Assembly: GCA_050331735.1 (NCBI GenBank)
Contig: JBHJGN010000071.1
Coordinates: 1-60,741, forward strand
Direction of reading: 5' to 3'
Source of the DNA: Cyanophyceae cyanobacterium
Lineage (GTDB): Bacteria; Cyanobacteriota; Cyanobacteriia; Cyanobacteriales; JBHJGN01
DNA length: 60,741 nucleotides
Part shown: positions 41,681-57,086 of the stretch, piece after piece
Position numbering within the stretch: the first letter of the stretch is position 1
Layout: every line of letters begins with the position of its first letter
Notes under the pieces: generated by a model
The model's input: the letters and a program-made list of their open reading frames with translations, nothing else
Told to the model about the DNA's origin: nothing
Databases searched by the model: none
Made by a program: the position numbers and the translations under genes

Positions 41681-41803
41681 TTGAGGGAGGTTGAGCGGAG
41701 CTCGCCGGCATGAGGAACCATAGTCTTTTCGCTGATCGCTGATTGGTGCTTGAATCCCACGAAGTTAAGCAGATTCAATTCAGTTGAAAATCACCACCGA
41801 AAC

Positions 41804-42673
41804 ATGCAGAAACTTTTAGTGACCGGAGCTAGTGGCTTTTTGGGCTGGCATCTTTGTCGGCGGGCCACCGACCAATGGCAGGTCATTGGGACCACCTGGC
41901 GTCAGCGGGTAGAAATTCCTGGAGTTTGTCTAATTCGGGTTGATTTAAGACATTTCAAGACCCTGCAGGAGCTGTTTGCCCACGTACAGCCAGCGGCAGT
42001 GATTCATACGGCGGCCATGTCCAAGCCTAACGCTTGTCAGCAGAGCCCTGAAGCCGCCTATTCCATTAACGTTACCGCCTCTCTCAATCTGGCTCGGCTT
42101 TGCGCGGAGGCGAGGATTCCTGTTGTCTTTACGTCCACTGATTTGGTATTCGACGGCCACAATCCTCCCTATTCAGAAACCGCGCCTGTCTCTCCGCTCA
42201 ACATCTACGGCGAGCAGAAGGTGGCTGCTGAACAAGGCATTCTCAAGCGCTCTCCCCGTGCTGTTATCTGCCGTCTACCGCTCCTCTTTGGTGCAGCAAC
42301 GCCGAGCGCCAGCAGCTTCATGCAGCCGCTGGTTGCTGCCTTAAAAGCTGGACAGGAACTGCGATTATTTACCGATGAATTTAGAACTCCCGTCAGTGCG
42401 GCCACCGCTGCCGACGGTTTGCTGTTGGCCCTCAACACTCAGGGAATCTTGCATCTTGGGGGCAAAGACCGGGTATCTCGATACCAGTTTGGATGTTTAA
42501 TAGCAGAAGTCTTCGGTCTTTCCCAGGCCAACATTTCTCCCTGCCGTCAAAGAGATATCCCGATGGCGGCTCCGAGAGCGGCGGATGTTTCCCTCGATAG
42601 CTCAAAAGCCTTTAGTTTAGGTTATCGACCTTTACCGCTTCAGGAGCAGTTAAAGTCTTTACTAGAGCAATAA
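41804..42673 (+). CDS. RmlD-like NAD(P)-dependent oxidoreductase (dTDP-4-dehydrorhamnose reductase family)
   Basis: LVTGASGFLG, STDLVFDG, YGEQK, DEFRTP, PRAADVSLD. Confidence 0.9.
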   Translation: MQKLLVTGASGFLGWHLCRRATDQWQVIGTTWRQRVEIPGVCLIRVDLRHFKTLQELFAHVQPAAVIHTAAMSKPNACQQSPEAAYSINVTASLNLARLCAEARIPVVFTSTDLVFDGHNPPYSETAPVSPLNIYGEQKVAAEQGILKRSPRAVICRLPLLFGAATPSASSFMQPLVAALKAGQELRLFTDEFRTPVSAATAADGLLLALNTQGILHLGGKDRVSRYQFGCLIAEVFGLSQANISPCRQRDIPMAAPRAADVSLDSSKAFSLGYRPLPLQEQLKSLLEQ

Positions 42674-42727
42674 CCAATCTGTCTCTGCCCTTTCCCCTTT
42701 TCCCGTCGCGAAGCGACTGAGCTGGCC

Positions 42728-43438
42728 ATGACCAATCTCCCACAACTATCTGTATTGACCTTCCCGGTACACTTGGCCAACGACTATACGCAGTGGCTAA
42801 CCGAACGTCTTCGTCAAGGCGTTAGCACCCACGTTGTTACCCTCAATGCAGAAATGGTCATGCTGGCTGAGCAGAATCCGGCCTTAGCTGAGGTGATTCG
42901 AGCAGCGGAATTAGTCATTCCAGACGGTGCCGGCATCACGCTCCATCTCCGTCTCAAGCGTCAGCGACAGAAACGCTGTCCCGGCATTGAGCTGGCAGCA
43001 TCGCTGCTGAAAAATTTACAGCAAGAGTTAGTCTGCTTTTATGGAGGAAAACCAGGCGTGGCTCAAGCAGCGGCTCAAAGCTGGCAGAAGCAGCTTCCGC
43101 ACCTAAACATTATTGCCAGTCACGGCTACCTCTCCCCCCCTGAACAGCAGCAGTGGAAACAAACGCTAGCAGAACATCAGCCCCGGGTCATTTTAGTTGG
43201 TTTAGGAGTCCCCCAGCAGGAACTGTGGATTTTCCAGAATCGTTCTCTGTGCCCGCAGGCGATTTGGATCGGGGTGGGCGGTAGCTTCGATATTTGGGCA
43301 GGAGTGAAAACGCGGGCACCAAAATGGTTGAGAGAGAACAGCTTGGAATGGCTATACCGTCTCTACCAGGAACCTTGGCGCTGGAAGCGGATGCTAGCGT
43401 TACCGCAATTTTTTCTAAAGTCCTTGTTTTCTAAATGA
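42728..43438 (+). CDS. WecB/TagA/CpsF-family glycosyltransferase
   Basis: VVTLNAE, IPDGAG, GLGVPQQE, GVGGSFD, RAPKW, LEWLYRLYQEPWRWKRM. Confidence 0.93.
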   Translation: MTNLPQLSVLTFPVHLANDYTQWLTERLRQGVSTHVVTLNAEMVMLAEQNPALAEVIRAAELVIPDGAGITLHLRLKRQRQKRCPGIELAASLLKNLQQELVCFYGGKPGVAQAAAQSWQKQLPHLNIIASHGYLSPPEQQQWKQTLAEHQPRVILVGLGVPQQELWIFQNRSLCPQAIWIGVGGSFDIWAGVKTRAPKWLRENSLEWLYRLYQEPWRWKRMLALPQFFLKSLFSK

Positions 43439-43460: not shown

Positions 43461-44348
43461 CTACTGAAGCAGCTCAGCTTCTTGCTGGTAATTCAGCAGC
43501 CGCTCTAACTCGCTCAACTGCTCAGAATAGAACTGAATGCTGCTCGGGCCAGAGCTGATTTCTGTAGCAGGAGAGATAAAAGTTGTCGGTTCTGCCAACT
43601 GGTGTTGGGAAAAGCCGACCGTTCTGATAAAGGGATCTTTAGCAACCGTTTCTAGACCAACCGAACGCAGCAGCTCTACCCACTGATCTGCTATTGCTTT
43701 ATCAGACTGCAAGCTTTTTGCTTGAGCAAGAGTTGCCAAGGCTTCGTGCCAAATATTAGCCTCTTGATAAAACGCCGCTTGTTCTAAGGGGCTTAATCGG
43801 CTTAATCGGCTAATTGCCACTTGCTCAAGCTCAACACGCCGAATAATTCCCTCAACGACAACATCTTCGGCGCGGTTATCCGGATTACAGATGATGGACA
43901 GATACCAGTGGTAGTCCCGATTAACTTTCAGCGGCTGTGCTGTGCTGGCTATTTTAACGCTGATAATTCCCTGTTTCCCAGAAGCCGAGAAGATTGTATC
44001 GTAAACGAGCTGGTCTTCCTGGTTGCGCAGAACAAACTCTACTGTCTGCTGCTGGTCGGCGCGAGGCAGGCGTAAAAACAAGGTCGGAGAAGGAGAGGTC
44101 GTCAGGCTCACAGATTCGTTGGGAATGAGAGCCACAAGAGAATTTTGACTGATGCAGGTTTCTCGTCTCGTGCCGCCGCCGGCTCTACGCGAAGGAAGCG
44201 GAATCGGCTCCTCCGGTTCGGCCACAGTTTTTCTGCTCTGGTAGGTGCTGGCTAAGGCTACTGGTGCAGGGCAAACTGAAAACACGGTCAGTAGCGAAGC
44301 AATACAGATAATCGGTAAAGCTTTACCAAAGTGCGATCGCTCTAACAC
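43461..44348 (-). CDS. DUF928 domain secreted protein
   Basis: Signal peptide (ALA); RRAGGGTR..C, LVALIP, TTSPSPTL, YHWYLSIIC, GIIRRV, IWHEAL, WVELLRSVGL. Confidence 0.9.
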   Translation of the reverse strand: MLERSHFGKALPIICIASLLTVFSVCPAPVALASTYQSRKTVAEPEEPIPLPSRRAGGGTRRETCISQNSLVALIPNESVSLTTSPSPTLFLRLPRADQQQTVEFVLRNQEDQLVYDTIFSASGKQGIISVKIASTAQPLKVNRDYHWYLSIICNPDNRAEDVVVEGIIRRVELEQVAISRLSRLSPLEQAAFYQEANIWHEALATLAQAKSLQSDKAIADQWVELLRSVGLETVAKDPFIRTVGFSQHQLAEPTTFISPATEISSGPSSIQFYSEQLSELERLLNYQQEAELLQ

Positions 44349-44612
44349 GACAATTTCCTCTATACGGATTCAAGCTTAGGTCACTAGATAGTGTAACATT
44401 ATTTGTCGATTGAGCAAGGGAGAGGCCAAAATTTAGCCGCTCAAACTTGGGTAACTGACCTGTTCTCCCGGGAATTCCTCGCCCTGAAGGAACTTCGGGC
44501 AGGACGGGCAGCACCACTAAAATGAGCAGCTCTTTAGGTAACATAAAGTAATATTTATTGCTAAAAAAGTAACTTTTTAGAGAACCCTCAACCGCGATCG
44601 CTATCCTAGGCC

Positions 44613-47132
44613 ATGATGAAGCTTCTCCACACGGTTCGTTTGCTGTTCTTCAAGACAAAAGCTCGCCCAGGATTTTTTGGGTCAGCTTCCGGGTCTCTGG
44701 TGCTGCTCGCTAGCGTCCTCGTTACGGGAACAGTGCTGGCCGCTAAGTCCTTAAGCTGGTTTCAGTTGCCTGAGCTAGTCGCCTACGACAGCATGATTCG
44801 TCTTCGGCCAGAAGCTCCCCTCGATTCTCGTTTGCTCATTGTCGGAATCACTGAGGCAGATATTCAAAACCAAAAGAGCTGGCCTCTCTCCGATGAAGTC
44901 GTTGCTCAACTGCTCGAGAAACTCCAAAGGCATCAGCCACGGGTGATTGGTTTAGATTTATACCGCGATATTCCCCATCCGCCAGGAACAGCCTCTCTGC
45001 GGCAGCAGCTTCAGGCCGACAACGTTGTTGCTATTTATGAAATTGGCAACAACACTGGCGTCAAGCCTCCCCCGGGAGTTCCCGAGGAGCGTCTTGGCTT
45101 TAACGATTTACTGCTGGATGCCGACAATGTGCTGCGCCGGAATCTTCTCTATGCCGAGTCCGCCTCTGGGGCCCGAAAAATTTACTCGTTTGCTCTTCAG
45201 GTCAGCCTCCACTATTTAGGCGATCGCGCGGCACTCTTTGCGGCCTATCCAGACTTTCTCCAAATTGGTCAGACCGTCTTCCCGACTCTCAAGCCCAATT
45301 CCGGCGGCTATCAGATGGTTCCGCTCGAAGCTCAAGGCTGGCAAACCTTGCGAATCTACCGCTCTCGAGAAATAGCGCCCCAAATTTCTCTTACCCAGGC
45401 TTTGACCGAAGAGTTAGATCCGAACCTGATTCGGGGTAAAGCGGTGCTGATTGGCACTACGGCTCCGAGTGAAAAAGATATTTTTTTGAGTCCCTACAGC
45501 GCTACTTTAACTGGCATGTTGCGAGTGCCGGGGGTAGAAGCCCATGCTCGTACCGTTAGCCAAATCCTCGGTGCTGTCCTCGATGATTCTTCTCAGTTCT
45601 GGTTTTGGCCAGAAACGAGCGAGGGGCTGTGGATCTGGGCCTGGTCTCTAGGAGGCGGCGTTTTAGTCTGGCGCATCCACCGTCCGCTCCTATTGGGAGT
45701 CAGCTTAGCGACGGCGGTCCTGCTCCTGTGGGGACTCTGCTTCGGGCTATTTCTCGGCTCGGGATGGGTGCCGTTTGCTGCCCCAGCCATTGCTTTAGTC
45801 GCCACTGGCGGCAGTGTCTTAGCCTACAAGTTTTTCTACAGTTTTTCCTACGATTCTCTCACGGGTCTGGCCAATCGCGGTCGCTTCATCAAACAGCTAC
45901 GACAAGAACGCCACAGACACCAACCGATCGCCGTAATCGTGGTGACGCTCAACCGTTTCAAGGTAATCAACGATAGTCTCGGACACCAGGCTGGAGATCA
46001 GCTTCTGATCGTGGCGGCTAATCGTCTGAGAACTTGCTTGCCCGGTAAATCTCAACTCGCGAGAGTCGGCAATCATGAGTTTGCTCTCTGTCTAAACGAT
46101 ATTGCTGAAATTGAAGCAGCGATCGCCGTTGCCAACTGTATCCAACAGAAGTTACAGGCTCCTTTCCGGTTAAACGAGCAAGATATCTACACCAGTACGA
46201 GCTTGGGGATTGCCTATCGCTACCCACAGAGTAGCGGCAAATTGGAAGACCTGCTGCAAAACGCTCATATTGCCATGTATCGAGCCAAAGCGCTCGGTAA
46301 ACAGCGGCCAGAAGTCTTTATTGCCAGAATGCACGACCAGACGCTCAAGCGCTGGCAGCTCGAAACGGATTTGCGTCAGGCGTTGGAGCACCATGAGTTC
46401 GAGCTTTATTATCAGCCAATTGTGTTACTGGAGACGGGAAAACTGGCGGGTTTTGAAGCGTTGATTCGCTGGCGATCGCCTGAACGTGGCTTTGTCGTTC
46501 CCAGTGAATTCATTCCCATCGCTGAAGAAACGGGCTTAATCATTCCTATCGGTCAGCGCGTACTGCGAGCAGCCTGCCTGCAAATGAAGCGCTGGCACGA
46601 GCAGTTTCCCCATAACGCATCGCTGACGATTAGCGTGAATCTCTCCCCACGGCAGTTTGCTCAGCCAGAACTGCTCCGGCAGGTTCAGCAAACCATTGCA
46701 GACGTGGGACTGGATTCGCGGTGCCTGAAGCTGGAGATTACCGAGAGCATGGTGACAGAAGATTTGGAAGGGGCGATCGCTCTTCTCCAGCAGCTCAAGG
46801 CTCTCAACCTGAAGCTGAGTATCGATGATTTTGGCACGGGCTATTCTTCGTTGAGTACGCTGCACCGCTTTCCCATTGATACCCTCAAGATCGATAAATC
46901 CTTTGTCTGTCGTCTGGAGGAAAGCTCCCAGTATGCCGAGATTGTTAAAACCATTGTGGTTTTAGGACACAATTTGGGGTTAGAAATTATTGCAGAAGGC
47001 ATTGAGACAGCCGCTCAGATGCAGATGCTTCGAGCTTTAGGCTGCGAGTACGGACAGGGCTACCTGTTTGCCAAACCGCTCTCGAAAGAAGCCGTTGCTA
47101 AGCTGATTGCGCAAGAGCCGCAGTGGCGATAG
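44613..47132 (+). CDS. CHASE2-GGDEF(degenerate)-EAL membrane receptor, predicted c-di-GMP phosphodiesterase
   Basis: CHASE2 motifs (DSRLLIVGITEADI, PRVIGLDLYRD, GKAVLIG, PGVEAHA), three TM helices, GNHEF in place of GGDEF, EALIRW and DDFGTGYSS. Confidence 0.93.
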   Translation: MMKLLHTVRLLFFKTKARPGFFGSASGSLVLLASVLVTGTVLAAKSLSWFQLPELVAYDSMIRLRPEAPLDSRLLIVGITEADIQNQKSWPLSDEVVAQLLEKLQRHQPRVIGLDLYRDIPHPPGTASLRQQLQADNVVAIYEIGNNTGVKPPPGVPEERLGFNDLLLDADNVLRRNLLYAESASGARKIYSFALQVSLHYLGDRAALFAAYPDFLQIGQTVFPTLKPNSGGYQMVPLEAQGWQTLRIYRSREIAPQISLTQALTEELDPNLIRGKAVLIGTTAPSEKDIFLSPYSATLTGMLRVPGVEAHARTVSQILGAVLDDSSQFWFWPETSEGLWIWAWSLGGGVLVWRIHRPLLLGVSLATAVLLLWGLCFGLFLGSGWVPFAAPAIALVATGGSVLAYKFFYSFSYDSLTGLANRGRFIKQLRQERHRHQPIAVIVVTLNRFKVINDSLGHQAGDQLLIVAANRLRTCLPGKSQLARVGNHEFALCLNDIAEIEAAIAVANCIQQKLQAPFRLNEQDIYTSTSLGIAYRYPQSSGKLEDLLQNAHIAMYRAKALGKQRPEVFIARMHDQTLKRWQLETDLRQALEHHEFELYYQPIVLLETGKLAGFEALIRWRSPERGFVVPSEFIPIAEETGLIIPIGQRVLRAACLQMKRWHEQFPHNASLTISVNLSPRQFAQPELLRQVQQTIADVGLDSRCLKLEITESMVTEDLEGAIALLQQLKALNLKLSIDDFGTGYSSLSTLHRFPIDTLKIDKSFVCRLEESSQYAEIVKTIVVLGHNLGLEIIAEGIETAAQMQMLRALGCEYGQGYLFAKPLSKEAVAKLIAQEPQWR

Positions 47133-47442
47133 GCTTTTTCTCCGGTTGCAGCAATCTACTACCAAATTTTTATCTAGAAAACAGAAAAAAAGATCAGAGT
47201 TTGCTAGGGTTTTCTACCTAGAGCATCCAAGAATTTACAGAAAAGCACAGGCGAAAGAAAATCTTTTAAAGCTAAGCTCTATAGAGCATTCTGCGTTTTT
47301 CAGAGCCAATAAGATTTGCTGAAGCGGCAAATGTGAAGATTTAGTTAAGAACAATTACTGATGTTTCTTTAGATAGAGAAAAATATATTGTTTCTTGTAA
47401 ATAACTTGAAAGAGTAACTCCAAAACTAGAGAGGCTAAAATC

Positions 47443-47616
47443 ATGAACATTAATTCTGTATTAATCGCTGTCACCCTAATTTTGATCAGCGGAGTTGGAG
47501 TCGGCACAGCTCAGGCAACTCAGATTCAAGAAGACACCGCTCAGCTATTCCAACTTGAAGACATTCAAGATACGGTAACGGCTGAAGGAAGAAGAAGAGG
47601 TGGAAAGCAACGGTAA
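47443..47616 (+). CDS. unannotated 57-aa secreted peptide
   Basis: MNINSVLIAVTLILISGVGVGTAQA|TQIQEDTAQLFQLEDIQDTVTAEGRRRGGKQR*; AGAGAGG RBS 8 nt upstream; signal peptide with AxA site; absent from the ORF track, presumably too short. Confidence 0.75.
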   Translation: MNINSVLIAVTLILISGVGVGTAQATQIQEDTAQLFQLEDIQDTVTAEGRRRGGKQR

Positions 47617-47909
47617 TTAAAGAACTGTTCTAGTTAAGTAAACCAAATACGAGCAAATTATCAGAATAAAGAAGGACTGGTAAGAGAAAAAGTGTACGCT
47701 CAAGACAAATAATTTTAGCAATTGATCGTGTTTGATGAATTGCCGCAGGTCGAGCAGTATGCTTTAGGCTTGACAAAATTTGTAGCTTCAGTAGGCAGTT
47801 GCTAGCTACTAATAGGATTTAAGCTTCTGCTAGCCGGATTCTGATAGGATTACACCAGTACATTTTCTAGCAGTTAGCGGCTAAAGCCTCTATTAACCTG
47901 CTCGATTTG

Positions 47910-50579
47910 ATGAAACAACAGTACTATACCTGGGTTGCTAGCAGTCTTGCTTACTTCTGTTTAGCAACCCCATCTGTTTATGCTAATCCAATTGAAGCTG
48001 ATGCGACTTTAGCACCTGACAACACTGTTGTTAATCATCAGGGAAACACCTTTGAAATTACAGGTGGAGTCGAAGCTGGCACTAACTTGTTTCATAGCTT
48101 TAAGCAATTTTCTGTGCCTGATGGGAGTGTTGCTCGCTTTGTTAATGACGTTTCAGCCATCGAAAATGTCATTACCCGGGTTACGGGTTCATCTCCTTCA
48201 ATAATTAACGGTCGGCTCGAAGCTGGAGGCATGGCTCCTAATTTCAACTTGTTTCTGCTCAACCCTAACGGGATTAGTTTTGGTCCAAATGCCTCCCTCG
48301 GGTTAAACGGTTCGTTTATTGCCACTACAGCGAATGCGATTCAGTTTCGTACTCAGGGATTCTTTGGCACTAATGCATCAAGCGACCCATCAGTGCTTAG
48401 GATTAATCCTTCGGCATTGCTATTTAGTCAAACCCAATCCCAACCAATCAACAGCAAGCGCTCCTCTCTCTCCTTAGCAGAGGGAAACACTCTCGGGTTC
48501 GTTGGTGGCGAGGTTTTAATAGACGCTAGCAAGCTGATAGTTCCTGGGGGCGATGTTGAATTAGGAGGACTCTCACAGCCAGGAGCAGTACAGTTAATCT
48601 GGGAAGGGAACAATTTTGACTTAGGTTTTCCTCCTGACAAGGCTACGCTAGCTGATGTCACGCTTACCAATGGAGCCGAAATTAACGTAAGGTCATCTCG
48701 CGGTGGCAATATTAACATTGCTGCCGAAGCTCTGACGATTCTAGCTGAAAGCAAGCTTTTTGCTGGAGTTGAAGAAGGCACAGGTTCTAGAAACGCTAGA
48801 TCCGGGGATGTTACGTTACAGGCTCGCTCTGTTGATATTGTCAATTCTGAATTGAGAAACAGAGTTTTGGGTAGAGGGCAAGGCGGAAGCGTCTTGATAA
48901 CAGTTGATAATTCTCTGCGGTTAGATGGCAATACACTGATTCAGAGCAATCTAGGCGATTTTGGTATTGAAGCAGCAGCAGGACAAGCAGGTAATATTAA
49001 TATTCAGGCGCGCTCACTTTCACTCCTTAACGGGGCTCAGATACAGTCCAACACTAGAGGGCGCGGTAATGCTGGGCAGATTGATATCCGTGCCCATAGG
49101 GTAAAAATTGAGGGAGAGATCGAAGATGAAGAAGTGCCGGGGGATTTTTTTCCCAGCGCAATCTTCAGCACGGTAGGGGAAGAGGCAATCGGCAGTGGGG
49201 GAAATATTGATATTAAAGCTAGCACATTAGAAATATCTGATGGAGGACAAGTGCTAGCCGATACTTTGGGTATAGGTGATGCCGGAAGTATTTCCATTCG
49301 GGCTAGTGAAGCTGTCGCTCTTTCCCAAAGTACAGAAAACAACGGTACTCTGATTGGTAGCGGTGTAGTCTCGGGCGCAGAGGGCAATGGAGGAATAATT
49401 TTTCTAGAAACGCCAGTACTCTCTCTAACAGGTGGCGCTCAAATCGGGACGAACATTTTTGGTCCTTTGAAAGATCTTCCTGGTGGAATAGCAGACCAAG
49501 GAGGTGATATTTCAATTAATGCCTCTGATTTTGTCCTCATATCTGGGTTTGGTCTACGGGGGTTTTCCAGCGGAGTCTTCACTAGTGCTGAAGAAGATAC
49601 GACGGGTACAGCAGGAAGTATCAATATTACAACAGCAAACTTTCGTATTGAAGATGGTGCATCAGTAGATGCCCGAACCGAGAATGATAGCGCTGGAGGC
49701 AATATTAAAATTAACGCGACTACGTTTGAAGCAGTTGGCGGCGGTCAAATTCAAACGAATGCTAGGGGTCGGGGTCAAGCCGGCAATATTACTGCCAATG
49801 TAACAGGCAACCTCACCATTTCTAGTAGCGAGCCTGGCTTTGAATCTCGATTAGAGAAATTTGGGGAGCAGGTAGTCACTAAGTTTGGAGCGGAGAGCGG
49901 GCTGATTACGGTAGCGGAAGAGAGTAACGGAGGCAATATTACTCTCCAAAACTTAAATCTTTTGGTGCTGCTAGATGGCGGCAGAATATTAGCTAGTGCT
50001 CTCCAAGGTCGGGGAGGAAATATCAATATTGAAGCGCAGGGAGTGTCCGTTGCTAATCCTGAAGCGCAGATTGATGCGAGTGGTGAAGTTGATGGAAATA
50101 TTAATATCGAGACTCCTAATCTTGACCCCGATCAAAGACTGGTCAAGCTAGCGGTGGAAGTGGTCGATGTCGAAAACCTGGTCGCTCAAGGATGCCAACC
50201 TGGGAAAAACTTAGGTAACAGCAGCTTTACCATTACCGGACGCGGGGCTTTAACGCCTAGCCCCATCGATACGCTTTCTCCTAATTCGGTGCTCGTTGAT
50301 TTCGGAACGGATGCTGAGCCGTCACCGAACGACCGTTTTGCTCCATCAGAAGCCGAATCGACTGCTGAACCAGCTCTCCCGCTTGCTCCCCCAGAAATTC
50401 GGGAAGCTCAGGGATGGATTCAAGAAGCAAATGGTAAAGTAGTGCTAACCGCTCAAGCACCAGCGGGAAGTTCTTATACATCTGGCCTGAGTTCAGCAAC
50501 CTGCCGTGATTTTAGCTCTCGCTCACCCTTATCTATTTCTCCGACTACTACTAGAGATAGCACTAGTCGTCCTCGTTAG
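47910..50579 (+). CDS. filamentous haemagglutinin-like TpsA exoprotein
   Basis: Signal peptide; TPS domain NLFHSFKQFSV, RVTG, NLFLLNPNGI.FGPNASL; GxAGNINI beta-helix repeats; C-terminal SSFTITGRG and EAQGW..GKVVL. Confidence 0.93.
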   Translation: MKQQYYTWVASSLAYFCLATPSVYANPIEADATLAPDNTVVNHQGNTFEITGGVEAGTNLFHSFKQFSVPDGSVARFVNDVSAIENVITRVTGSSPSIINGRLEAGGMAPNFNLFLLNPNGISFGPNASLGLNGSFIATTANAIQFRTQGFFGTNASSDPSVLRINPSALLFSQTQSQPINSKRSSLSLAEGNTLGFVGGEVLIDASKLIVPGGDVELGGLSQPGAVQLIWEGNNFDLGFPPDKATLADVTLTNGAEINVRSSRGGNINIAAEALTILAESKLFAGVEEGTGSRNARSGDVTLQARSVDIVNSELRNRVLGRGQGGSVLITVDNSLRLDGNTLIQSNLGDFGIEAAAGQAGNINIQARSLSLLNGAQIQSNTRGRGNAGQIDIRAHRVKIEGEIEDEEVPGDFFPSAIFSTVGEEAIGSGGNIDIKASTLEISDGGQVLADTLGIGDAGSISIRASEAVALSQSTENNGTLIGSGVVSGAEGNGGIIFLETPVLSLTGGAQIGTNIFGPLKDLPGGIADQGGDISINASDFVLISGFGLRGFSSGVFTSAEEDTTGTAGSINITTANFRIEDGASVDARTENDSAGGNIKINATTFEAVGGGQIQTNARGRGQAGNITANVTGNLTISSSEPGFESRLEKFGEQVVTKFGAESGLITVAEESNGGNITLQNLNLLVLLDGGRILASALQGRGGNINIEAQGVSVANPEAQIDASGEVDGNINIETPNLDPDQRLVKLAVEVVDVENLVAQGCQPGKNLGNSSFTITGRGALTPSPIDTLSPNSVLVDFGTDAEPSPNDRFAPSEAESTAEPALPLAPPEIREAQGWIQEANGKVVLTAQAPAGSSYTSGLSSATCRDFSSRSPLSISPTTTRDSTSRPR

Positions 50580-52245
50580 TATTGGCTCAATTCGTCGCCT
50601 CCCTGCTCAAACGCCCCCAGAGCTACCTCCTCGCGAAGACCTACCGCAACTGCCTCGCCCGATTCCTCCAGAGGATGAGATTCCTGAAGAATCGCCGCAG
50701 CTTCCTCCCCCCGAAGAACTCCTCCCGCCCGATTCGCCAGCTCCCTCAGATCTCCCCGCTATTCCCGGAACGATCACCGTTAATCAGTTTCAGGTCGTCG
50801 GCAGCACAATCTTTACCGACGAACAGCTAGCAGCAGCCACCGAGCCGTTTGAGGATCGCCCCCTCTCGTTTGCGGAACTGCTTCAGGCTCGCTCAGCGAT
50901 AACTCAGCTCTACGTTAATAACGGCTACGTCACCTCAGGCGCAATCATTCCGCCCCAAGAAATCGCAGAGGGTACCGTCAGAATTGACGTCGTGGAAGGG
51001 GCTTTGGCCGAAACCAACGTGGACATTGAAGGAAGACTCGACCCAGACTATATCAGCGATCGCCTGGCGCTGGCCACTCAAGTGCCCTTAAACGTGCCTC
51101 GCCTGGTAGAAGCGCTTCAGTTACTTCAGCTTAACCCTCTGGTGGAGAGAATTTCAGCAGAACTCTCGGCGGGGGTTCGACCGGGAACCAGTGTCTTGGA
51201 TGTGGAAGTAGAAATTGCCGATACCTTTAGTACCCAAATCGCTTTAGATAACGGTCGTTCTCCCAGCGTTGGCAGCTTTCGCCGCCAGGTGGAGCTCACC
51301 GAAGCCAATTTGCTCGGCTTAGGAGATAATTTTAGAGCCACCTACCGCAATACCGACGGCAGCAACGACTTTGACGTAGCCTACACGATCCCCGTTAATG
51401 CCCGCAACGGCACGTTTGCCCTCAGCTATCGCAAGGTGGGCAGTGAAGTCGTAGAAGAGCCCTTCGATTTTCTTAATATCGAATCAGAGTTCGACCGCTA
51501 CGAACTCACGCTCCGTCAACCCGTCATCCAGAAACCCACACAGGAGCTAACCCTTGGCCTGAGCGCCGAGCGGACTGCCAGCGTCGTGACCTTTTTAGAC
51601 GAAGAAGTGGGGTTTCCCGAATCAGGAGAAGGAATTACGCGACTAACGACCCTGCGCTTCTTTCAGGAATGGCTCCAGCGCGGTCAACAGCAGGTGTTTG
51701 CTGCGCGATCACAGTTTAGCGTTGGGTTGGATGCCCTCGATGCGACCACCAGCGATGAAGCTCCCGACGGGCGCTATTTTGCCTGGCGCGGACAGGCTCA
51801 ATGGGTCAGGCAGCTAGCAGCAGATACGTTAGTGTTAGTCCGCAGCGACTTACAGTTAACCGACGACAACTTAGTAGCGCTCGAACAGTTCGGCTTGGGA
51901 GGCATTGGCAGCGTGAGAGGGTATCGCCAGGATGCTCTGTTAGAAAATAACGGTGTTCTCGCTTCGGCTGAGGTGCGTCTTCCCATCCTGCGGGTTCCCT
52001 CTCAAGACATGGTGCTACAGGTAGTTCCCTTTGTCGATTTTGGAACCGTCTGGGGTCGGTCTGATGACGAATTTAGCCCAGATACGGATACCCTGGCGGC
52101 GATCGGCATTGGCCTCAACTACGAGCTTGGAGAAACGTTTAGTGCCCGTTTAGATTGGGGCATTCCTCTAGTTGAGCTAGAGGCTAACGGCGATACATTG
52201 CAAGAAAACGGGATTTACTTTTCAATTATCTATACACCTTTCTAA
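50506..52245 (+). CDS. ShlB/FhaC/HecB-family TpsB outer-membrane transporter
   Basis: POTRA (ITQLYVNNGYVTSGA), DNGRSPSVG, GGIGSVRGY, C-terminal Phe; start uncertain because of a 74-nt overlap with tpsA. Confidence 0.93.
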   Translation: MILALAHPYLFLRLLLEIALVVLVSIGSIRRLPAQTPPELPPREDLPQLPRPIPPEDEIPEESPQLPPPEELLPPDSPAPSDLPAIPGTITVNQFQVVGSTIFTDEQLAAATEPFEDRPLSFAELLQARSAITQLYVNNGYVTSGAIIPPQEIAEGTVRIDVVEGALAETNVDIEGRLDPDYISDRLALATQVPLNVPRLVEALQLLQLNPLVERISAELSAGVRPGTSVLDVEVEIADTFSTQIALDNGRSPSVGSFRRQVELTEANLLGLGDNFRATYRNTDGSNDFDVAYTIPVNARNGTFALSYRKVGSEVVEEPFDFLNIESEFDRYELTLRQPVIQKPTQELTLGLSAERTASVVTFLDEEVGFPESGEGITRLTTLRFFQEWLQRGQQQVFAARSQFSVGLDALDATTSDEAPDGRYFAWRGQAQWVRQLAADTLVLVRSDLQLTDDNLVALEQFGLGGIGSVRGYRQDALLENNGVLASAEVRLPILRVPSQDMVLQVVPFVDFGTVWGRSDDEFSPDTDTLAAIGIGLNYELGETFSARLDWGIPLVELEANGDTLQENGIYFSIIYTPF

Positions 52246-52497
52246 ACCGGAAATTTCAGTAGATTTACGGAGTATAGAAGAGCAGGATTGATTGTAGCAT
52301 TGATCCGTTCAATTCTGAGGAGACAACACGATTGAAGCTGCCAACGAAGGGATAAAGTGCCGCTAGCGGGAGTGAGGGAGCTATCCTACACGAGGAAAAC
52401 CTAGGGAGTTGCTAATGGCCTTTCTCCTGCCTTTGCGATCGCTCGGCGACTAATCCCTCTTTTATTCAGATTGCCTTGGGCAAAACATCTAAGCCTC

Positions 52498-55026
52498 ATG
52501 TTTTTTCGTCATTTATTCAAGCTCGCTTTGTTAGCGATACTGGGCTTGGCGATTAGCTTAACGTCAGTGATTGGCTCTAACAGTTGGGCCGGACAACCAG
52601 TCGAGCAGCAGGGACTCGAACTCTATCAAAATGCCCAGTTTCAAGAAGCCGCTCAGTTTTGGCAGCAGGCCATTCAAGAATATCAAACCACCGGCAACCG
52701 CTTCGGCCAGGCCAGAGTTTTGAGTAATTTATCTCTGGCCTATCAGCAGTTAGGGCAATGGCAGCAGGCACAAACCGCCGTCAGGCAAGGCCTAGAGCTG
52801 CTGCAATCAGCGGTGAGGGATTCTGATTCTTTGGCCTTTACCAGAACCATGGCCCAGGCCCTCAATACCCTGGGAAAATTGCAGTTAGCTCTAGGTCAGG
52901 CCGAGACAGCGCTGAATACCTGGCAGCAAGCAGCAGACTACTACGCTCAAGCTAATAACGTCACCGGGGTAGTGCAAAGCCAGCTCAATCAGGCGGAGGC
53001 ATTACAGCGACTCGGACTCTATCGCCGCGCTTTCAAGCAGCTTCTGGAGGTAGAGCCGCAGCTCGAGACTCAGCCACCAACGGTTAGGGCAGTCGGGCTC
53101 AGAAGCCTGGGAGATCTGCTGCGGCTTACTGGCAACGTGGAGCGATCACGTCAGGTGTTAGAGGACAGTTTAGCCGTGAAAGGGATCGACCCCAATGAAA
53201 GGGCTGCTACTCTCCTCAGCTTAGGCAATACCGTTCGCGCTCAAGCTGATGTCCAAGAAGCTCTTGACACCTATCAACAGGCAGCCAATCGAGCCACTAC
53301 CCCCAGTCTCCGCGCCACTGTTCGTCTCAGCCAGTTTAGCCTGCTGTTGGATTTAGAGCGGTGGCAAGCGGCGGCGGCGCTCTGGCCTCAGATTGGCTCA
53401 GAAATTGCTCAGCTTCCCCTCAGTCATGCATCGATCCATGCCCGGATCCATTTTGCCCATAGCTTAACCCGCCTGAAAGCAGGATTAACGACGGCGGATG
53501 GTCCCTCTTGGCAGTCGATTACTCAATACCTAACGGACTCTGTTCAACAGGCTAGGGCCCTCGATGACGCGAGAGATTTATCTTACGCTCAAGGCTTCCT
53601 CGGTGAAGTTTATGCCCAGACCGAGCGGTGGGAGGAAGCGCAGGAATGGCTAGAAAAAGCTCTATTGTTAGCCCAGGCGGCGCGAGCGCCGGATGTTGTT
53701 TACCGCTGGCAGTGGCAACTGGGTAAAGTGCTCAACGCTCAAGGACAACGGCTCCAGGCGATCGCTGCCTATCAAGAAGCGGTGAACACCCTCGACTCGC
53801 TGCGCAGCGATTTAGCCGCCGTTGACCTCAATCTCCAGTTTTCTTTTCAAGAGAGCATTGAGCCTATCTATCGCGAGCTGGTCAGCTTACTGCTCCAGCC
53901 AGAGGCCGATGAAATCCCTCAGCAGAATCTAGCACAAGCCCGCGACGTGATTGAATCGTTTCGCGTTGTTGAACTCGATAATTTTTTGCGCCAAGCCTGT
54001 GTAACGGCTGAGCCAGTCGAGATTGAGCAACTCGATCCCCAGGCAGCAGTTATCTATCCGATTATTTTGAGCGATCGCCTAGAAATCATCGTTTCTTTCC
54101 CCGATCTTCCCCTGCGTCACTATACCAGCTCGGTCTCAGCAGCCCAACTCGAAGCGGTCATTGAGGAGCTGCGAGTTGGGCTTGTGATTCGCAGCCGACG
54201 ACTATTTTATGCTCCAGCGCAGCAGCTCTACGATTGGCTGCTGCGACCGATGGCGGCAGATTTAGCTAACAGTGACGTCAACACTCTGGTCTTTGTTTTG
54301 GATGGCTCTCTGCGCAACGTCCCAATGGCGACTCTACACGACGGCGAACACTACCTCCTCGAACAGTACAGCTTGGCCCTCAGTCCAGGGCTGCGACTGT
54401 TGCCGCCCACGACTCTAGAACCAACGGCCATCAAAACGTTAATGGCCGGAGTTTCTGAGGCCAGTCAAGGCTTTTCTTCTCTTAACCATGTTGTTCTCGA
54501 GCTCCAGGAGATTGCAGAAACAGCGACTAAAAGCGTTGTCTTACTCAACGAAGAATTCACCGAAGACGCCCTCAGCAATCAAGTGAGGTTTTCCGAGCTG
54601 CCCATTGTTCACATTGCCACTCACGGACAGTTCAGCTCTAGTTTACAAGAGACTTATATCTTAGCCTGGGACAGCCGCATCAACATCCGCGAGTTAAACG
54701 AGCTGCTTCAGACGAGAACCGCCACTGACGCGATTGAACTGCTTGTCCTCAGTGCCTGCGAGACGGCGATTGGAGATAAACGAGCCGCTCTTGGTTTAGC
54801 AGGAGTTGCTGTTCAGGCGGGAACCAGAAGTACCGCCGCTACCCTGTGGGCTGTGAATGATGAAGCTACGGCCCTCCTCATGGGTCAGTTTTACGAGGAA
54901 TTGACCAATCAGCAGACTACCAAAGCAGAAGCGTTAAGACAAGCGCAGCTCAAGCTGCTGCAAAATCGCTGGTACAGACACCCGTTTTACTGGGCTCCCT
55001 ATGTTCTCATTGGGAATTGGCTGTAG
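52498..55026 (+). CDS. exported TPR-CHAT domain protease (caspase/HetF-like clan)
   Basis: Signal peptide, TPR repeats, catalytic HIATHG and LVLSAC, LWAVND, HPFYWAPYVLIGNWL. Confidence 0.95.
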   Translation: MFFRHLFKLALLAILGLAISLTSVIGSNSWAGQPVEQQGLELYQNAQFQEAAQFWQQAIQEYQTTGNRFGQARVLSNLSLAYQQLGQWQQAQTAVRQGLELLQSAVRDSDSLAFTRTMAQALNTLGKLQLALGQAETALNTWQQAADYYAQANNVTGVVQSQLNQAEALQRLGLYRRAFKQLLEVEPQLETQPPTVRAVGLRSLGDLLRLTGNVERSRQVLEDSLAVKGIDPNERAATLLSLGNTVRAQADVQEALDTYQQAANRATTPSLRATVRLSQFSLLLDLERWQAAAALWPQIGSEIAQLPLSHASIHARIHFAHSLTRLKAGLTTADGPSWQSITQYLTDSVQQARALDDARDLSYAQGFLGEVYAQTERWEEAQEWLEKALLLAQAARAPDVVYRWQWQLGKVLNAQGQRLQAIAAYQEAVNTLDSLRSDLAAVDLNLQFSFQESIEPIYRELVSLLLQPEADEIPQQNLAQARDVIESFRVVELDNFLRQACVTAEPVEIEQLDPQAAVIYPIILSDRLEIIVSFPDLPLRHYTSSVSAAQLEAVIEELRVGLVIRSRRLFYAPAQQLYDWLLRPMAADLANSDVNTLVFVLDGSLRNVPMATLHDGEHYLLEQYSLALSPGLRLLPPTTLEPTAIKTLMAGVSEASQGFSSLNHVVLELQEIAETATKSVVLLNEEFTEDALSNQVRFSELPIVHIATHGQFSSSLQETYILAWDSRINIRELNELLQTRTATDAIELLVLSACETAIGDKRAALGLAGVAVQAGTRSTAATLWAVNDEATALLMGQFYEELTNQQTTKAEALRQAQLKLLQNRWYRHPFYWAPYVLIGNWL

Positions 55027-55279: not shown

Positions 55280-55765
55280 ATGAAAAAAACAAATGCGGTT
55301 CGCCTGCTAGATAATCTGGGGATTGAATATCAGTTGCTGACATACTCAGTAGATCCCGATGATTTAGCAGCTCAGAGTGCGGCTGCTAAGTTAGACTTTC
55401 CTCCCGAACAGCTCTTTAAAACCTTAGTCGCTCGCGGTAGCCAAGTCGGAGTCTGTTTTGCCGTCGTTCCGGCCAATGTCCAACTGAGTTTTAAAGCTTT
55501 AGCCAAGCTAGCAGGCGATCGTAAACTGGAAACAGTGCCGTTAAAAGCAGTACAGTCCTTAACTGGATACATTCGCGGTGGCGTGACGGCACTAGCAGCT
55601 AGAAAAAATTATCCAGTCTACATCGATGAAACTTGCCAACATTTTGAAAAAATTGCTGTATCGGCAGGAGTTCGGGGTATGCTGATTCAGTTAGCGCCTG
55701 CCGACTATATTCGGGCAACCCAGGGAATGCTTGGGGCGATCGCCATAGCAGTGACCAGTGATTAA
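55280..55765 (+). CDS. ybaK: Cys-tRNA(Pro) deacylase
   Basis: KTNAVRLLD, FKTLV, TGYIRGGVT, VSAGVRG. Confidence 0.93.
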   Translation: MKKTNAVRLLDNLGIEYQLLTYSVDPDDLAAQSAAAKLDFPPEQLFKTLVARGSQVGVCFAVVPANVQLSFKALAKLAGDRKLETVPLKAVQSLTGYIRGGVTALAARKNYPVYIDETCQHFEKIAVSAGVRGMLIQLAPADYIRATQGMLGAIAIAVTSD

Positions 55766-55796
55766 TGAGTAGATTAACTAGATAATTGGGGAAGTA

Positions 55797-55925
55797 ATAC
55801 CATTTACCGAAAGTAGTCAGATAGTTCCCAAACGAACCAAGAATTGGAGGTTCAAGGGCAAAGAGCTGCTGTGCTTCCCTTTCCCCCAACTCATCAAGTC
55901 TCCTATTACTTTTTCTAATTGGTAT
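55797..55925 (+). mobile_element. MITE-like element family A, copy 2
   Basis: Near-identical to 3147-3283 with one fewer TTTCCCC unit. Confidence 0.85.
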
Positions 55926-55997
55926 AACTCACTCAGGACTGACAAGCGACAACTGGTCACTGCTATAACTGGTAACTGATACAACTGGTAACTGGAA

Positions 55998-56630: not shown

Positions 56631-56901
56631 GCTTTTGGCCAGCGCTCGTTTCGTGACATCAAGCTGTGAATCGGGGAAAATATCAAATCCGCGTGATTAG
56701 TGCTTAGCAAAGAGGAGCTGGATTTGATTAGTGGTCAAGGATTAGTCGTTAGCGACGAAGATGATTTCCACTCACTACCCCGTCTAGCTTACTGTTCAAC
56801 TGCTTGTAAGACTATAGCGATTTAAACGGACGAAGGAGATTGGCACCAGTCTTTTCACTTGCGGGTTTTGTATAATATAATAATTAATCGTGGTATTAAA
56901 T

Positions 56902-56986
56902 GGGTCGATGCCCGAGTGGTTAATGGGGGCGGACTGTAAATCCGCTGGCTATGCCTACGCTGGTTCAAATCCAGCTCGGCCCACCA
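56902..56986 (+). tRNA. trnY: tRNA-Tyr(GTA)
   Basis: GGGTCGA acceptor stem, CTGTAAA anticodon loop, long variable arm, TTCAAATC, encoded CCA. Confidence 0.98.
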
Positions 56987-57014
56987 CCCAAATTTAGTTT
57001 TTTGGTATTGTTTT

Positions 57015-57086
57015 GCCCGTGTAGCTCAGCGGTAGAGCACACCCTTGGTAAGGGTGAGGTCACGAGTTCAAGTCTCGTCACGGGCT
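57015..57086 (+). tRNA. trnT: tRNA-Thr(GGT)
   Basis: GCCCGTG/CACGGGC acceptor stem, TTGGTAA anticodon loop, TTCAAGT T-loop; CCA not encoded. Confidence 0.98.

Follow-up and report, generated by a model that had tools for sequence, protein, structure and literature searches.

Do six neighbouring cyanobacterial genes for a DUF928 protein, a CHASE2 receptor, a small peptide, a TpsA/TpsB pair and a CHAT protease work together, and if so, what do they sense and report? The window, a stretch of 60,741 nucleotides that makes up contig JBHJGN010000071.1 of a Cyanophyceae cyanobacterium, carries these genes at 43461-55026, and our ORF check and Pfam searches confirmed all six at the coordinates that a sequence-only reading had given. 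As that reading also held, and as the strands confirm, the DUF928 gene (43461-44348, minus strand; Pfam DUF928 PF06051, E 3.4e-56; 295 aa) is divergent from the CHASE2 receptor gene (44613-47132, plus strand; CHASE2 2.2e-64, GGDEF 3.7e-37, EAL 1.2e-76; 839 aa). The latter is followed on the plus strand by a small peptide gene (47443-47616; 57 aa) that matches no Pfam family, tpsA (47907-50579; TPS domain 2.3e-41; 890 aa), tpsB (50506-52245; ShlB 3.4e-28, POTRA_2 1.3e-22, Omp85 2.6e-16; 579 aa) and the TPR-CHAT gene (52471-55026; CHAT 3.5e-60 and TPR families; 851 aa). The only overlap is between tpsA and tpsB, where the start of tpsB lies 74 nt inside the end of tpsA, and the receptor and peptide genes lie 310 nt apart, peptide and tpsA 290 nt, and tpsB and CHAT 225 nt. 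The six genes are not a single tight operon, and promoter- and terminator-like sites at the locus are no commoner than in shuffled sequence. Export of the proteins was assigned on two features only, hydrophobic segments at the N-terminus and Ala-X-Ala-like sites. Our literature search found no paper describing the six-gene module.

About eight paralogous copies of a modular cyanobacterial envelope sensor exist in the source genome, and the window holds one of them; the gene set is widespread in cyanobacteria. The source genome has eight DUF928 genes, all of which have a CHAT gene within 10.6 kb. CHASE2 lies within 2 kb of six of them, the remaining two being at contig ends, and TPS genes lie within 6 kb of five. 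A wider count covered five complete genomes from five families and compared neighbours within a 10-kb radius of 43 DUF928 genes with random placement. CHASE2 was found near 28 of these genes (random mean 2.0), CHAT near 25 (4.3) and TPS near 21 (1.8), and all three partners were found near 14 of the 43, compared with 0.39 at random. CHAT is also within 10 kb of 38 of 56 TPS genes. Co-location of the families far exceeds chance, and the claim that they co-occur in cyanobacteria is thereby upheld.

The core of the module is DUF928 and CHASE2, while the CHAT and TpsA/TpsB arms are optional. Among 21 loci with a receptor orthologue, seven have DUF928 alone and one lacks both partners within about 13-15 kb. 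The arms differ in order and orientation from one locus to the next, and the full set of six parts recurs in two gene orders, with two different outputs. CHAT adjoins DUF928 with no TPS gene nearby at four loci (L027, L034, C44 and C56), adjoins TPS without DUF928 on contig C24, where TpsA, TpsB and CHAT stand alone, and its fusion to TPS was confirmed in 4/4 fetched proteins; together with the 38 TPS genes near CHAT, this speaks for CHAT as the bridge. The outputs of the CHASE2 proteins vary across paralogues between GGDEF-EAL, GGDEF, class III cyclase, histidine kinase and fused caspase with unchanged periplasmic partners, and this fits a shared input that feeds different outputs. Since c-di-GMP is merely one of several outputs, the module is a general sensory front end rather than the c-di-GMP circuit that had been proposed for it.

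In the window's own copy, the predicted output is c-di-GMP hydrolysis. The receptor consists of a transmembrane segment, a periplasmic CHASE2 domain (about residues 46-338; PF05226, 218 bits), a hydrophobic block, a degenerate GGDEF domain and an EAL domain, and its 19-aa windows with above-threshold hydrophobicity cover residues 19-48 and 355-404. This is the layout of a CHASE2 receptor, in which membrane helices flank the CHASE2 domain and a cytoplasmic output domain follows. The GGDEF domain, which had been overlooked when the protein was described as a CHASE2-EAL receptor, retains its fold (Pfam 128 bits), but the GG(D/E)EF active-site motif of diguanylate cyclases is absent from the receptor and replaced by GNHEF (residues 486-490, 46068-46082). 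The motif is also degenerate in the closest relatives, P0038 and P0039 (GENEF), and more distant relatives retain GGDEF. The catalytic motifs of EAL domains are EAL, N, E, DDFGTG, K, E(GIE) and Q. The EAL part of the earlier description stands, as the receptor has intact EAL (615; 46455-46463), DDFGTG (738), KID (759), EGIE (795) and QGY (815) motifs, and SVNLS and EITES are readable in its translation. It is the combination of intact EAL motifs and a degenerate GGDEF motif that leads us to predict hydrolysis.

The DUF928 protein scores 190.4 bits against PF06051 (cut-off 26), covering model positions 2-183 of 184, and is built of a signal peptide, a disordered N-tail, a beta-sandwich and a helical TPR-like domain. 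Its AF2 model (mean pLDDT 78.7) is confident from about residue 65, with strands in 81-171 and helices in 176-237. The best structural match to both domains is MtxA of Magnetospirillum gryphiswaldense (4Z29; PMC4439547), with Z 9.7, 147 aligned residues and an rmsd of 4.0, and Foldseek gives E about 5e-4; the DUF928 profile did not find MtxA by sequence. The modelled fold is thus MtxA-like, with an Ig-like sandwich ahead of a TPR-like helical domain. DUF928 and MtxA each carry a signal peptide and have a CHASE2 receptor gene next to their own, but MtxA differs from DUF928 in having an extra N-terminal domain and a CHASE2 adenylate cyclase as partner (PMC4439547). While fold, signal peptide and CHASE2-adjacent gene agree, a sequence relation is undetectable, so that the likeness does not imply common descent. 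The part of the MtxA account drawn on here reports no visible phenotype for an mtxA deletion mutant and mentions neither CHAT nor TPS genes (PMC4439547).

The N-tail of DUF928 carries the motif RRAGGGTR (residues 54-61; 44166-44189, minus strand) directly before Cys65. Arg61 and Cys65 are invariant in 33 sequences of the family, in which Cys154 is at least 90% conserved. Residues 56-61 have pLDDT below 50, and Arg61 and Cys65 lie at the boundary of disordered tail and fold. The predicted complex of DUF928 with CHASE2, a pairing already suggested in the sequence-only reading, scored 0.57, a mark reached by 116/157 solved complexes and 2/215 mismatched pairs. This is above the best control (0.33) but within the weak zone of 0.60 and below; at least 57% of contacts recur between runs and partner pLDDT is at least 77. 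The modelling lends weak support to the complex. Periplasmic co-receptors paired with membrane sensors are known from LuxP-LuxQ and TorT-TorS. The DUF928 pair resembles these in that a soluble periplasmic protein is encoded next to the sensor gene and may set sensor activity, but DUF928 has no solute-binding-protein fold, its disordered N-tail is conserved, and a protease gene travels along with it.

This protease gene encodes an N-terminal signal or anchor, a TPR region and a CHAT domain (PF12770, 204.4 bits). Its N-terminus is a hydrophobic segment with an SWA|G site, and all eight CHAT paralogues of the source genome begin with a hydrophobic segment. The HIATHG (residues 714-719, 54610-54627) and LSAC (residues 760-763, 54748-54759) motifs are intact as first reported, and the dyad His718/Cys763 is invariant in 27/27 module-linked CHAT domains. 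We predict that TPR-CHAT is an exported cysteine protease with an intact catalytic dyad.

TpsA has a signal peptide, a TPS domain, Gly/Asn-rich repeats and a conserved C-terminal tail. NPNG after the signal peptide is a motif of the TPS domain of TpsA passengers, and here it is found at residue 119. The domain matches PF05860 (142.9 bits) and TIGR01901, and its terminal branch is very long (1.86 versus a median of 0.33). TpsB, an outer-membrane transporter of the Omp85 family whose gene adjoins and overlaps tpsA, matches POTRA_2 (79.9 bits) and ShlB (99.5 bits). TpsA is conserved in its C-terminal third and variable in its N-terminal and central part. The tail (50193-50504, plus strand) runs from Cys763 through TGRGALT and EAQGW to Cys866, and the layout C...TG(R/A/S)GG(L/M)P...E(A/P)xG(W/V)...C is seen in 10/10 complete TpsA proteins of the source genome. 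Four of these ten have no CHAT on their contig; therefore, the tail, which in the sequence-only reading may activate TPR-CHAT, is not specific to CHAT neighbours.

The 57-aa ORF appears from its alignment to belong, as a divergent member, to a family of exported peptides whose leader is conserved and whose core, with two cysteines, is hypervariable. We define this family by alignment A4, in which members have a signal peptide, a conserved pro-region and a two-cysteine C-terminal core, and the gene is directly upstream of tpsA. Such tiny, highly variable secreted peptides are apparently undescribed and new here. The window peptide matches the family profile with E 7e-9 in one search and 2.3e-18 in another, and its ATG is preceded, 9 nt upstream, by a Shine-Dalgarno-like AGAGG. 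Its core RRRGGKQR (47590-47613) has no cysteine, which makes it the sole member of 28 without two cysteines. In 5/5 receptor-to-tpsA gaps a small ORF with a signal peptide is found at this place, and the peptide gene is directly upstream of tpsA in 11/11 independently found loci. The small ORF of the sequence-only reading therefore belongs to a real gene family, but its suggested role as a CHASE2 ligand is argued against both by this tracking of tpsA, rather than of CHASE2 or CHAT, and by the hypervariable core. Pheromone and bacteriocin precursors are leader-core peptides. The family resembles them in having a conserved leader or pro-region ahead of a short two-cysteine core that is hypervariable, but its signal is of the Sec type and not a double-glycine leader, and tpsA always follows; no modifying enzyme or dedicated ABC exporter is encoded beside the peptide gene.

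How might these parts act together? Our leading reading, which we hold tentatively, is that signalling runs from outside in, with the TpsA arm, the periplasmic TPR-CHAT and DUF928 controlling the CHASE2 phosphodiesterase receptor. What we observe directly is which genes occur together, how they are conserved, how the proteins are built of domains, which residues are invariant and that the outputs vary; all steps of binding and cleavage, and the direction in which the signal runs, are inferred. TpsA would be threaded via TpsB and display its variable N-terminal and central part at the surface, and its conserved tail, bracketed by two cysteines, would remain on the periplasmic side. The state of the TpsA/TpsB arm would then govern TPR-CHAT, which would act on DUF928, probably in the disordered N-tail at or near the invariant Arg61 before Cys65. 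Processing could alter how DUF928 engages the CHASE2 domain, and this engagement would set phosphodiesterase activity and thus c-di-GMP. In favour of this mechanism are the co-location counts, the constant periplasmic partners of varying outputs, the position of CHAT as a bridge, its invariant dyad and hydrophobic N-terminus, the invariant Arg61 and Cys65 of DUF928, the weakly supported complex, the CHASE2 cyclase gene beside mtxA and the conserved C-terminal third of TpsA. The optional arms, the TpsA tail that is not specific to CHAT, the weak-zone complex score with one control at 0.33, the failure of the DUF928 profile to find MtxA, the mtxA mutant with no visible phenotype, the promoter- and terminator-like sites at shuffled-sequence frequency and the loose gene arrangement count against it. 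CHAT proteases need not cleave after Arg, which counts against the Arg61 site.

Rather improbable, in our judgement, is that the locus holds two separate neighbouring units, a DUF928-CHASE2 sensor of some ligand and a secretion unit of peptide, TpsA, TpsB and CHAT. CHAT would merely mature or release TpsA or the peptide, and the link would be one of co-regulation or co-inheritance alone. The conserved TQPQ that precedes the variable peptide core does resemble a processing site, and each unit can be found by itself: the peptide, TpsA and TpsB occur without the other partners at L054, L056 and L057, TpsA, TpsB and CHAT on contig C24, and DUF928 with the receptor at the seven orthologous loci noted above. 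The shuffled arms also count for this reading. Against it are the four loci where CHAT is directly beside DUF928 with no TPS nearby, the 14 DUF928 genes with all three partners and the recurrence of the full set in two gene orders with two outputs. In addition, five peptide loci (L032, L037, L054, L056 and L057) have no CHAT in the fetched DNA (roughly 5-19 kb per side), so CHAT is not needed in cis for the peptide.

Signalling could also run from inside out, as in the LapD/LapG control of CdrA/CdrB in Pseudomonas aeruginosa, although we consider this unlikely. The receptor would read the nucleotide, and CHASE2 with DUF928 would hold or free CHAT, which would cut the TpsA tail and release TpsA from the surface. 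Both systems combine a TpsA protein and its TpsB with a cysteine protease of the periplasm and a GGDEF-EAL protein that sits in the inner membrane and has a periplasmic domain (in Pseudomonas the adhesin CdrA with CdrB, LapG and LapD; PMC4694147), and both would link the status of a surface protein to c-di-GMP. The degenerate GGDEF of the window's receptor and the conserved TpsA tail flanked by two cysteines are in line with this. However, protease and sensor domain come from unrelated families, a TPR-CHAT with a clan CD fold versus the transglutaminase-like LapG, and CHASE2 with its DUF928 partner versus LapD's own periplasmic domain (PMC4694147). Pfam found no LapG-type (transglutaminase-like) domain among the six proteins, and no LapG site is known in the module. 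The EAL motifs are intact where those of LapD are degenerate, and related modules have a cyclase or a histidine kinase as output, both of them enzymes and not nucleotide receptors. The LapD model reaches 130.4 bits against a cut-off of 1020. The module was rejected as a LapD/LapG-CdrAB system on the protease, the LapD score and the EAL motifs, and its direction of signalling is probably the opposite.

Our outside-in reading has an extension that we regard as a long shot, in which two variable elements at the cell surface, the core of the peptide and the N-terminal and central part of TpsA, fit each other as a polymorphic lock and key for self or kin recognition of a pherotype-like kind. Recognition would be relayed via the TpsA tail, CHAT and DUF928 to CHASE2, with c-di-GMP, cAMP/cGMP or a two-component system as output. 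If this were true, a physiological input to CHASE2 receptors would be identified, and caspase-fold proteolysis would act as a signalling step in the bacterial periplasm. About as improbable is that the peptide itself, once its pro-region is removed, possibly by CHAT, is a secreted quorum-type or pherotype cue sensed by DUF928/CHASE2, which comes near to what the sequence-only reading proposed. Secreted signalling peptides usually look like this one's family, with a conserved leader before a hypervariable core that holds two cysteines, the gene sits between receptor and tpsA in the window and at L013, L018, L032, L037, L055 and L064, and all six parts occur together in two gene orders. However, identity among five loci of a single genus is about 40% for the core but 94% for CHASE2 and 91% for DUF928, neither of which has a hypervariable patch (lowest 15-column windows 0.75 and 0.71), and this argues against the core as a CHASE2 ligand. 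Moreover, 3/16 peptide loci (again L054, L056 and L057) lack CHASE2 and DUF928 with tpsA always present, and both cysteines are gone from the window's own copy.

A role of CHAT as a death or immunity effector in conflict or defence, as proposed for cytoplasmic caspase systems of multicellular bacteria in which CHAT/caspase-CHASE2 fusions with DUF1822 are catalogued (PMC8195603), is very improbable here even though the source genome has one paralogue of this fused kind, since the CHAT of the window carries TPRs and a signal for export and is unfused to CHASE2, PADLOC matched only a generic TPR model, and the flanking ORFs (scanned with Pfam at 38583-43438 and 55280-59751) hold no sigma factor or DUF1822 match and no STAND or TRADD-N gene beside CHAT. 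The EACC2-caspase-CHASE2 systems with an ECF sigma factor and DUF1822 (Kaur, Iyer, Burroughs, Aravind, eLife 2021, PMC8195603) likewise tie a cyanobacterial caspase-fold protease to CHASE2, but there a cytoplasmic caspase is fused to CHASE2 in one chain, and the part of that account considered here mentions neither DUF928 nor TPS genes. With CHAT and CHASE2 in separate genes and no sigma factor or DUF1822 among its flanking ORFs, the window was rejected as such a system. The paralogue on contig C15 of the source genome, a fused caspase-CHASE2 with a DUF928 neighbour, does qualify as one.

The best-supported picture of the module at 43461-55026 is that of a modular envelope sensor. Its six ORFs lie exactly where a sequence-only reading had placed them, and Pfam recognises DUF928 on the minus strand (43461-44348), a receptor with CHASE2, GGDEF and EAL domains (44613-47132), the TPS-domain protein TpsA (47907-50579), the TpsB protein with POTRA_2 and ShlB (50506-52245), and a TPR and CHAT protein (52471-55026); a 57-aa ORF (47443-47616) belongs to no Pfam family. 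Every protein has the expected hydrophobic start and a plausible signal-peptidase site, as judged by hydropathy only, and in the receptor CHASE2 is flanked by two hydrophobic blocks (residues 19-48 and 355-404). The flanking genes are ordinary (RmlD-like and WecG-like upstream; YbaK-like, ExoD and UvrD-like downstream), and promoter and terminator scans returned fewer sites than shuffled sequence.

The receptor had been read as a CHASE2-EAL protein. The EAL part of this assignment stands, as the motifs EAL, DDFGTG, KID, EGIE and QGY, which we take to be the catalytic set, are all there, but a GGDEF domain had been overlooked. The GGDEF signature is degenerate (GNHEF), which in combination with the complete EAL motifs suggests that the output of this receptor is most likely c-di-GMP hydrolysis only. 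The motif is likewise degenerate (GENEF) in the two closest receptor relatives of the protein collection, and GGDEF is kept in more distant ones.

The window's genome contains 8 DUF928, 8 CHASE2, 11 CHAT, 11 TPS and 4 ShlB matches, and a Pfam scan of 69 ORFs picked from 104 ORFs in nine regions around these matches shows that the copies differ in the cytoplasmic output of their CHASE2 proteins. GGDEF-EAL in the window is replaced by GGDEF alone on contig C13, by a class III cyclase on C56 (then a metallo-beta-lactamase-fold gene and a cNMP-binding MscS channel), and by histidine-kinase ATPase domains on C39 and C19. The C5 copy has no recognised output domain and a response regulator comes next, and on C15 a caspase/CHAT domain precedes CHASE2 in one fused protein, next to a DUF1822 gene. 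The same periplasmic cast with a changing output is the main reason for regarding the module as a shared sensing front end across outputs, and the cyclase, histidine-kinase, GGDEF and fused-caspase outputs argue against the c-di-GMP-specific circuit proposed from the window alone. Eight parallel copies in one organism also suggest wiring specific to each copy. CHASE2 receptors are widespread, with c-di-GMP, cAMP/cGMP, kinase or protease outputs, and they gain here concrete, testable candidate partners in the periplasm: DUF928, an exported caspase-like protease and the TpsA/TpsB surface arm.

Some of these copies have features of their own. The C56 locus (L003, 1040-10390) encodes DUF928, the CHASE2-class III cyclase, the metallo-beta-lactamase-fold gene, which is Apyc1-like, the cNMP-binding MscS channel and a 1289-aa TPR-CHAT, and this cyclic-nucleotide module likely brings its own degrading enzyme and reader. 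The C5 module (L007) is flanked on one side (1-2481) by a C39-peptidase ABC exporter that begins with a cNMP-binding domain and on the other (16300-17973) by a STAND (NB-ARC/NACHT) NTPase. The C15 fusion of 788 aa is located between the DUF1822 and DUF928 genes (L002, 6476-10509); this module is of the same type as the EACC2-caspase systems, plus a DUF928 partner that is absent from the account in the accessible text of PMC8195603.

Within the same genome, a CHAT-domain gene is found within 10.6 kb of all eight DUF928 genes and within 8.2 kb of seven, where chance would give about 4% per DUF928 gene (11 CHAT genes in 5.57 Mb). CHASE2 lies within 2 kb of six of the eight, the remaining two being at a contig start or end, and TPS within 6 kb of five. 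DUF928 occurs in 30/101 sampled genomes of the phylum, mostly in multiple copies, and was not found in the small-genome families of that sample. Five complete genomes from five families, chosen for completeness and for having DUF928 (43 genes), were compared with 2000 random trials. CHASE2 lay within 10 kb of 28/43 DUF928 genes (random mean 2.0, maximum 8), CHAT of 25 (4.3 and 12), TPS of 21 (1.8 and 8), and all three of 14 (0.39 and 4). Here and in the counts below, kinship among genomes inflates the numbers. In the reverse direction, DUF928 was within 10 kb of 27/61 CHASE2, 32/136 CHAT and 24/56 TPS matches, and CHAT was within 10 kb of 38/56 TPS matches. The co-occurrence noted earlier for these families in cyanobacteria is thus borne out above random for DUF928 with CHASE2, CHAT and TPS.

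Full-length CHASE2-GGDEF-EAL relatives of the window's receptor (42-59% identity) are present in 53/201 sampled genomes of the order, source genome included; the 30 relatives searched were all from families other than that of the source genome, and in the closest syntenic locus that turned up the receptor is 59% identical. Strains of Stanieria, Pleurocapsa and Crocosphaera are among the relatives that databases name. We examined 21 receptor loci together with about 13-15 kb of DNA to either side, or less where a contig ended sooner. DUF928 adjoins the receptor in 20 of them, a count biased by choosing most loci from rows with a nearby DUF928 match already visible; CHAT is present in 10, TPS in 11 and TpsB in 6. 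All four partners occur in three loci: G106 keeps the window's gene order, G117 has a different one, and G113 carries a TPS-CHAT fusion. DUF928 is the sole partner in seven and one locus has no partner. These counts define DUF928 and the receptor as the core, and the protease and secretion arms, though often present, are optional and shuffled in order.

DUF928 would work with CHASE2, either as its co-receptor or as a partner under regulation. The predicted complex of the CHASE2 periplasmic domain (residues 46-338) with DUF928 (36-250), a pairing already envisaged from sequence, exceeded the best control (median score 0.57 vs 0.33) but falls inside the weak zone (<=0.60) of a calibration in which the mark was reached by 116/157 solved complexes and 2/215 mismatched pairs. 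Contacts agreed between runs to at least 57%, with partner pLDDT at least 77. The AlphaFold2 model of DUF928 (mean pLDDT 78.7) has beta-sandwich strands in 81-171, with confidence rising from about residue 65, followed by helices that form a second domain at 176-237. Among solved structures, MtxA alone matches both domains, through its C-terminal part (4Z29; Z 9.7 over 147 aligned residues, rmsd 4.0; Foldseek E about 5e-4), the next match covering the sandwich only (Z 7.8). A DUF928 profile gave no meaningful match among PDB sequences, and MtxA was not found by sequence. According to the accessible text of PMC4439547, MtxA has a signal peptide, its gene precedes that of a CHASE2 adenylate cyclase, and mtxA deletion had no visible phenotype. 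The one paper found to mention DUF928 refers in passing to a CHASE2-DUF928 pair in Nostoc punctiforme (sections available of PMC5587647).

Neither Arg61 nor Cys65 varies across 33 DUF928 sequences, and Cys154 is almost invariant. The motif RRAGGGTR (residues 54-61) lies in the N-tail, the N-terminal segment of DUF928, in a stretch that AlphaFold2 leaves disordered (pLDDT <50 at 56-61), immediately ahead of the confident beta-sandwich. In a Merismopediaceae locus (L013, 1324-2079) the N-tail motif occurs twice (RRKPGGSR ... RRKPGGSR).

CHAT proteases are known from cytoplasmic death and defence systems, and the module would place them in envelope signalling. The HIATHG and LSAC motifs noticed earlier were both found in the window's protein, the His/Cys dyad is invariant in 27/27 CHAT domains from these modules and fusions, and all eight TPR-CHAT paralogues of this genome start with a hydrophobic segment. 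The enzyme is most likely active and outside the cytoplasm, as the dyad and the hydrophobic starts suggest. In the five complete genomes, about 14/56 TPS matches are TPS-CHAT fusions by shared reading frame, and the four fetched all have an N-terminal TPS and a C-terminal CHAT domain. Since CHAT accompanies each side in the absence of the other and also occurs fused to TpsA, the exported protease would be the link between the sensor and the TpsA/TpsB arm. The reading we tentatively put first is outside-in signalling, with CHAT acting on the DUF928 N-tail. That two units are merely co-located is somewhat unlikely; parts of the module do occur separately, as in three loci with peptide, TpsA and TpsB only (L054, L056 and L057). 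Inside-out control of TpsA release, as in LapD/LapG-CdrAB in the accessible portion of PMC4694147, appears unlikely.

All 10 complete TpsA proteins of the source genome share a C-terminal tail that runs from a Cys through TG(R/A/S)GG(L/M)P, a linker rich in Pro and Ser, and E(A/P)xG(W/V) to a second Cys at its end, a count that leaves out an eleventh TpsA cut by a contig end. In the window's TpsA, no Pfam or NCBIfam model covers this tail. We considered the tail as a mark of CHAT linkage and rejected it; four of the ten tail-bearing proteins have no CHAT gene on their contig, and the tail is thus a general feature. Tail-bearing complete proteins (C...TGRGGLP...EAQGW...C) are found on contigs C4, C5, C9, C13, C24, C39, C59 and C71 of the source genome. 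The TPS-CHAT fusions lack the tail (four checked), CHAT occupying the C-terminal position; they are 1310-1510 aa long (four scanned) and form their own clade in the TPS-domain tree (L014-L017 and L047; support 100/100).

The 57-aa peptide, searched alone against 1.84 billion representatives, matched only itself and a spurious repetitive 1402-aa protein, and its family emerged only after alignment of positional homologues. In all five loci compared (window, L013, L018, L032 and L037), the gap between receptor and tpsA holds a same-strand, ATG-started ORF of 53-63 aa with a predicted signal peptide, and a Shine-Dalgarno-like site lies just upstream in all except L013. A profile of these ORFs retrieved 27 protein clusters at E <=0.01 among 72 candidates, which together with the shared position supports the peptide as a real gene, as first supposed. 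The 28-member alignment shows a conserved signal peptide, a conserved pro-region usually ending in TQPQ, and then a core of 8-16 near-totally different residues, rich in aromatics and Arg, with two cysteines 2-8 residues apart. Both cysteines are present in 27/28 members, the exception being the window's copy (RRRGGKQR), and the core of the family is a hypervariable stretch of apparent disulfide type. Two 53-54-aa members (P0159 and P0177) are labelled 'protochlorophyllide oxidoreductase' in public records, which looks like a carried-over annotation error.

The profile found the family in 14/401 genomes of the order (8/142 genera), with the peptide gene directly upstream of a same-strand TPS-domain gene in 11/11 loci (12 genes from about six lineages, six loci being from one genus). 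One locus (L057 in G328, 9714-10242) has two identical tandem peptide genes before one tpsA. Overall, 12 of 16 peptide loci have CHASE2 and DUF928, and seven have CHAT; one genus has all six parts in a different order with a cyclase output. Eleven TPS genes that do not share the receptor-to-tpsA arrangement had no family-like ORF upstream; the filter passed only two poor 30-33-aa ATG ORFs there (L029 and L047), and the upstream region of a twelfth gene is incomplete. Peptide-linked TpsA proteins may share a single origin; the TPS-domain tree, with a poorly resolved backbone and the window's domain on a very long branch, needs three changes. Always placed before tpsA, this newly noticed family offers a handle on the role of cyanobacterial two-partner secretion, possibly in strain-specific recognition in mats and colonies.

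Five loci of the one genus with all six parts were compared by mean pairwise identity: CHASE2 0.94, CHAT 0.92, DUF928 0.91, TpsB 0.89 (partial), TpsA 0.77, and for the peptide 0.9 in the leader and 0.4 at the core, in the lowest-scoring stretch of 15 columns. The first approximately 600 columns of TpsA are variable (synonymous difference 0.48-0.61, non-synonymous 0.10-0.25), and the last 250 or so resemble the flanking genes (0.21-0.31 and 0.04-0.06). The corresponding values are 0.15 and 0.04 in the peptide leader and 0.77 and 0.47 in the core, which offers very few sites (no more than about 8 synonymous ones) and is saturated for synonymous and non-synonymous change alike. No segment of the peptide core or TpsA had dN > dS in any of 10 pairs, so the result is high divergence only, with positive selection not proven, and a block of old or exchanged divergence extends from the peptide core into tpsA. 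The same pattern of variable front and conserved rear is seen between L013 and L055 (receptor 0.91, TpsA 0.78), repeats between L054 and L056, and is weak between L032 and L037. The window and its nearest syntenic relative give the same conservation ranking (TpsB 0.61, receptor 0.58, CHAT 0.58, DUF928 0.44, TpsA 0.40, peptide 0.26). The conserved TpsA rear would face the conserved periplasmic machinery; the TpsA front and the peptide core are the variable parts. The earlier suggestion that the peptide is a CHASE2 ligand is weakened to the point of being quite improbable, because the core is hypervariable next to a conserved CHASE2 and DUF928, and because the peptide keeps strictly to tpsA.

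That the module is a conflict system like those in the catalogue of Kaur et al. (accessible sections of PMC8195603) is highly improbable, and PADLOC returned a generic TPR model and nothing else. In a literature search of openly accessible main texts, DUF928 with CHAT, CHASE2 with 'CHAT domain', and 'CHAT domain' with 'two-partner secretion' were not found together, and no such module was among the matches listed for two-partner secretion in cyanobacteria.

RRRGGKQR (47590-47613), the core of the window's peptide, and RRAGGGTR (44166-44189), the conserved motif of the DUF928 N-tail, have the common pattern R-R-x-G-G-x-x-R. The core may mimic the DUF928 tail, or this may be coincidence; the related locus L013 has no such likeness, and RRxGG-type small ORFs in the paralogous modules were limited to one implausible antisense ORF. 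A WecG/TagA-type glycosyltransferase gene adjoins DUF928 both in the window (42728-43438) and in L013 (478-1278), and an ExoD gene lies downstream of the module in the window (55998-56630), neighbours which make a link to surface polysaccharide possible.
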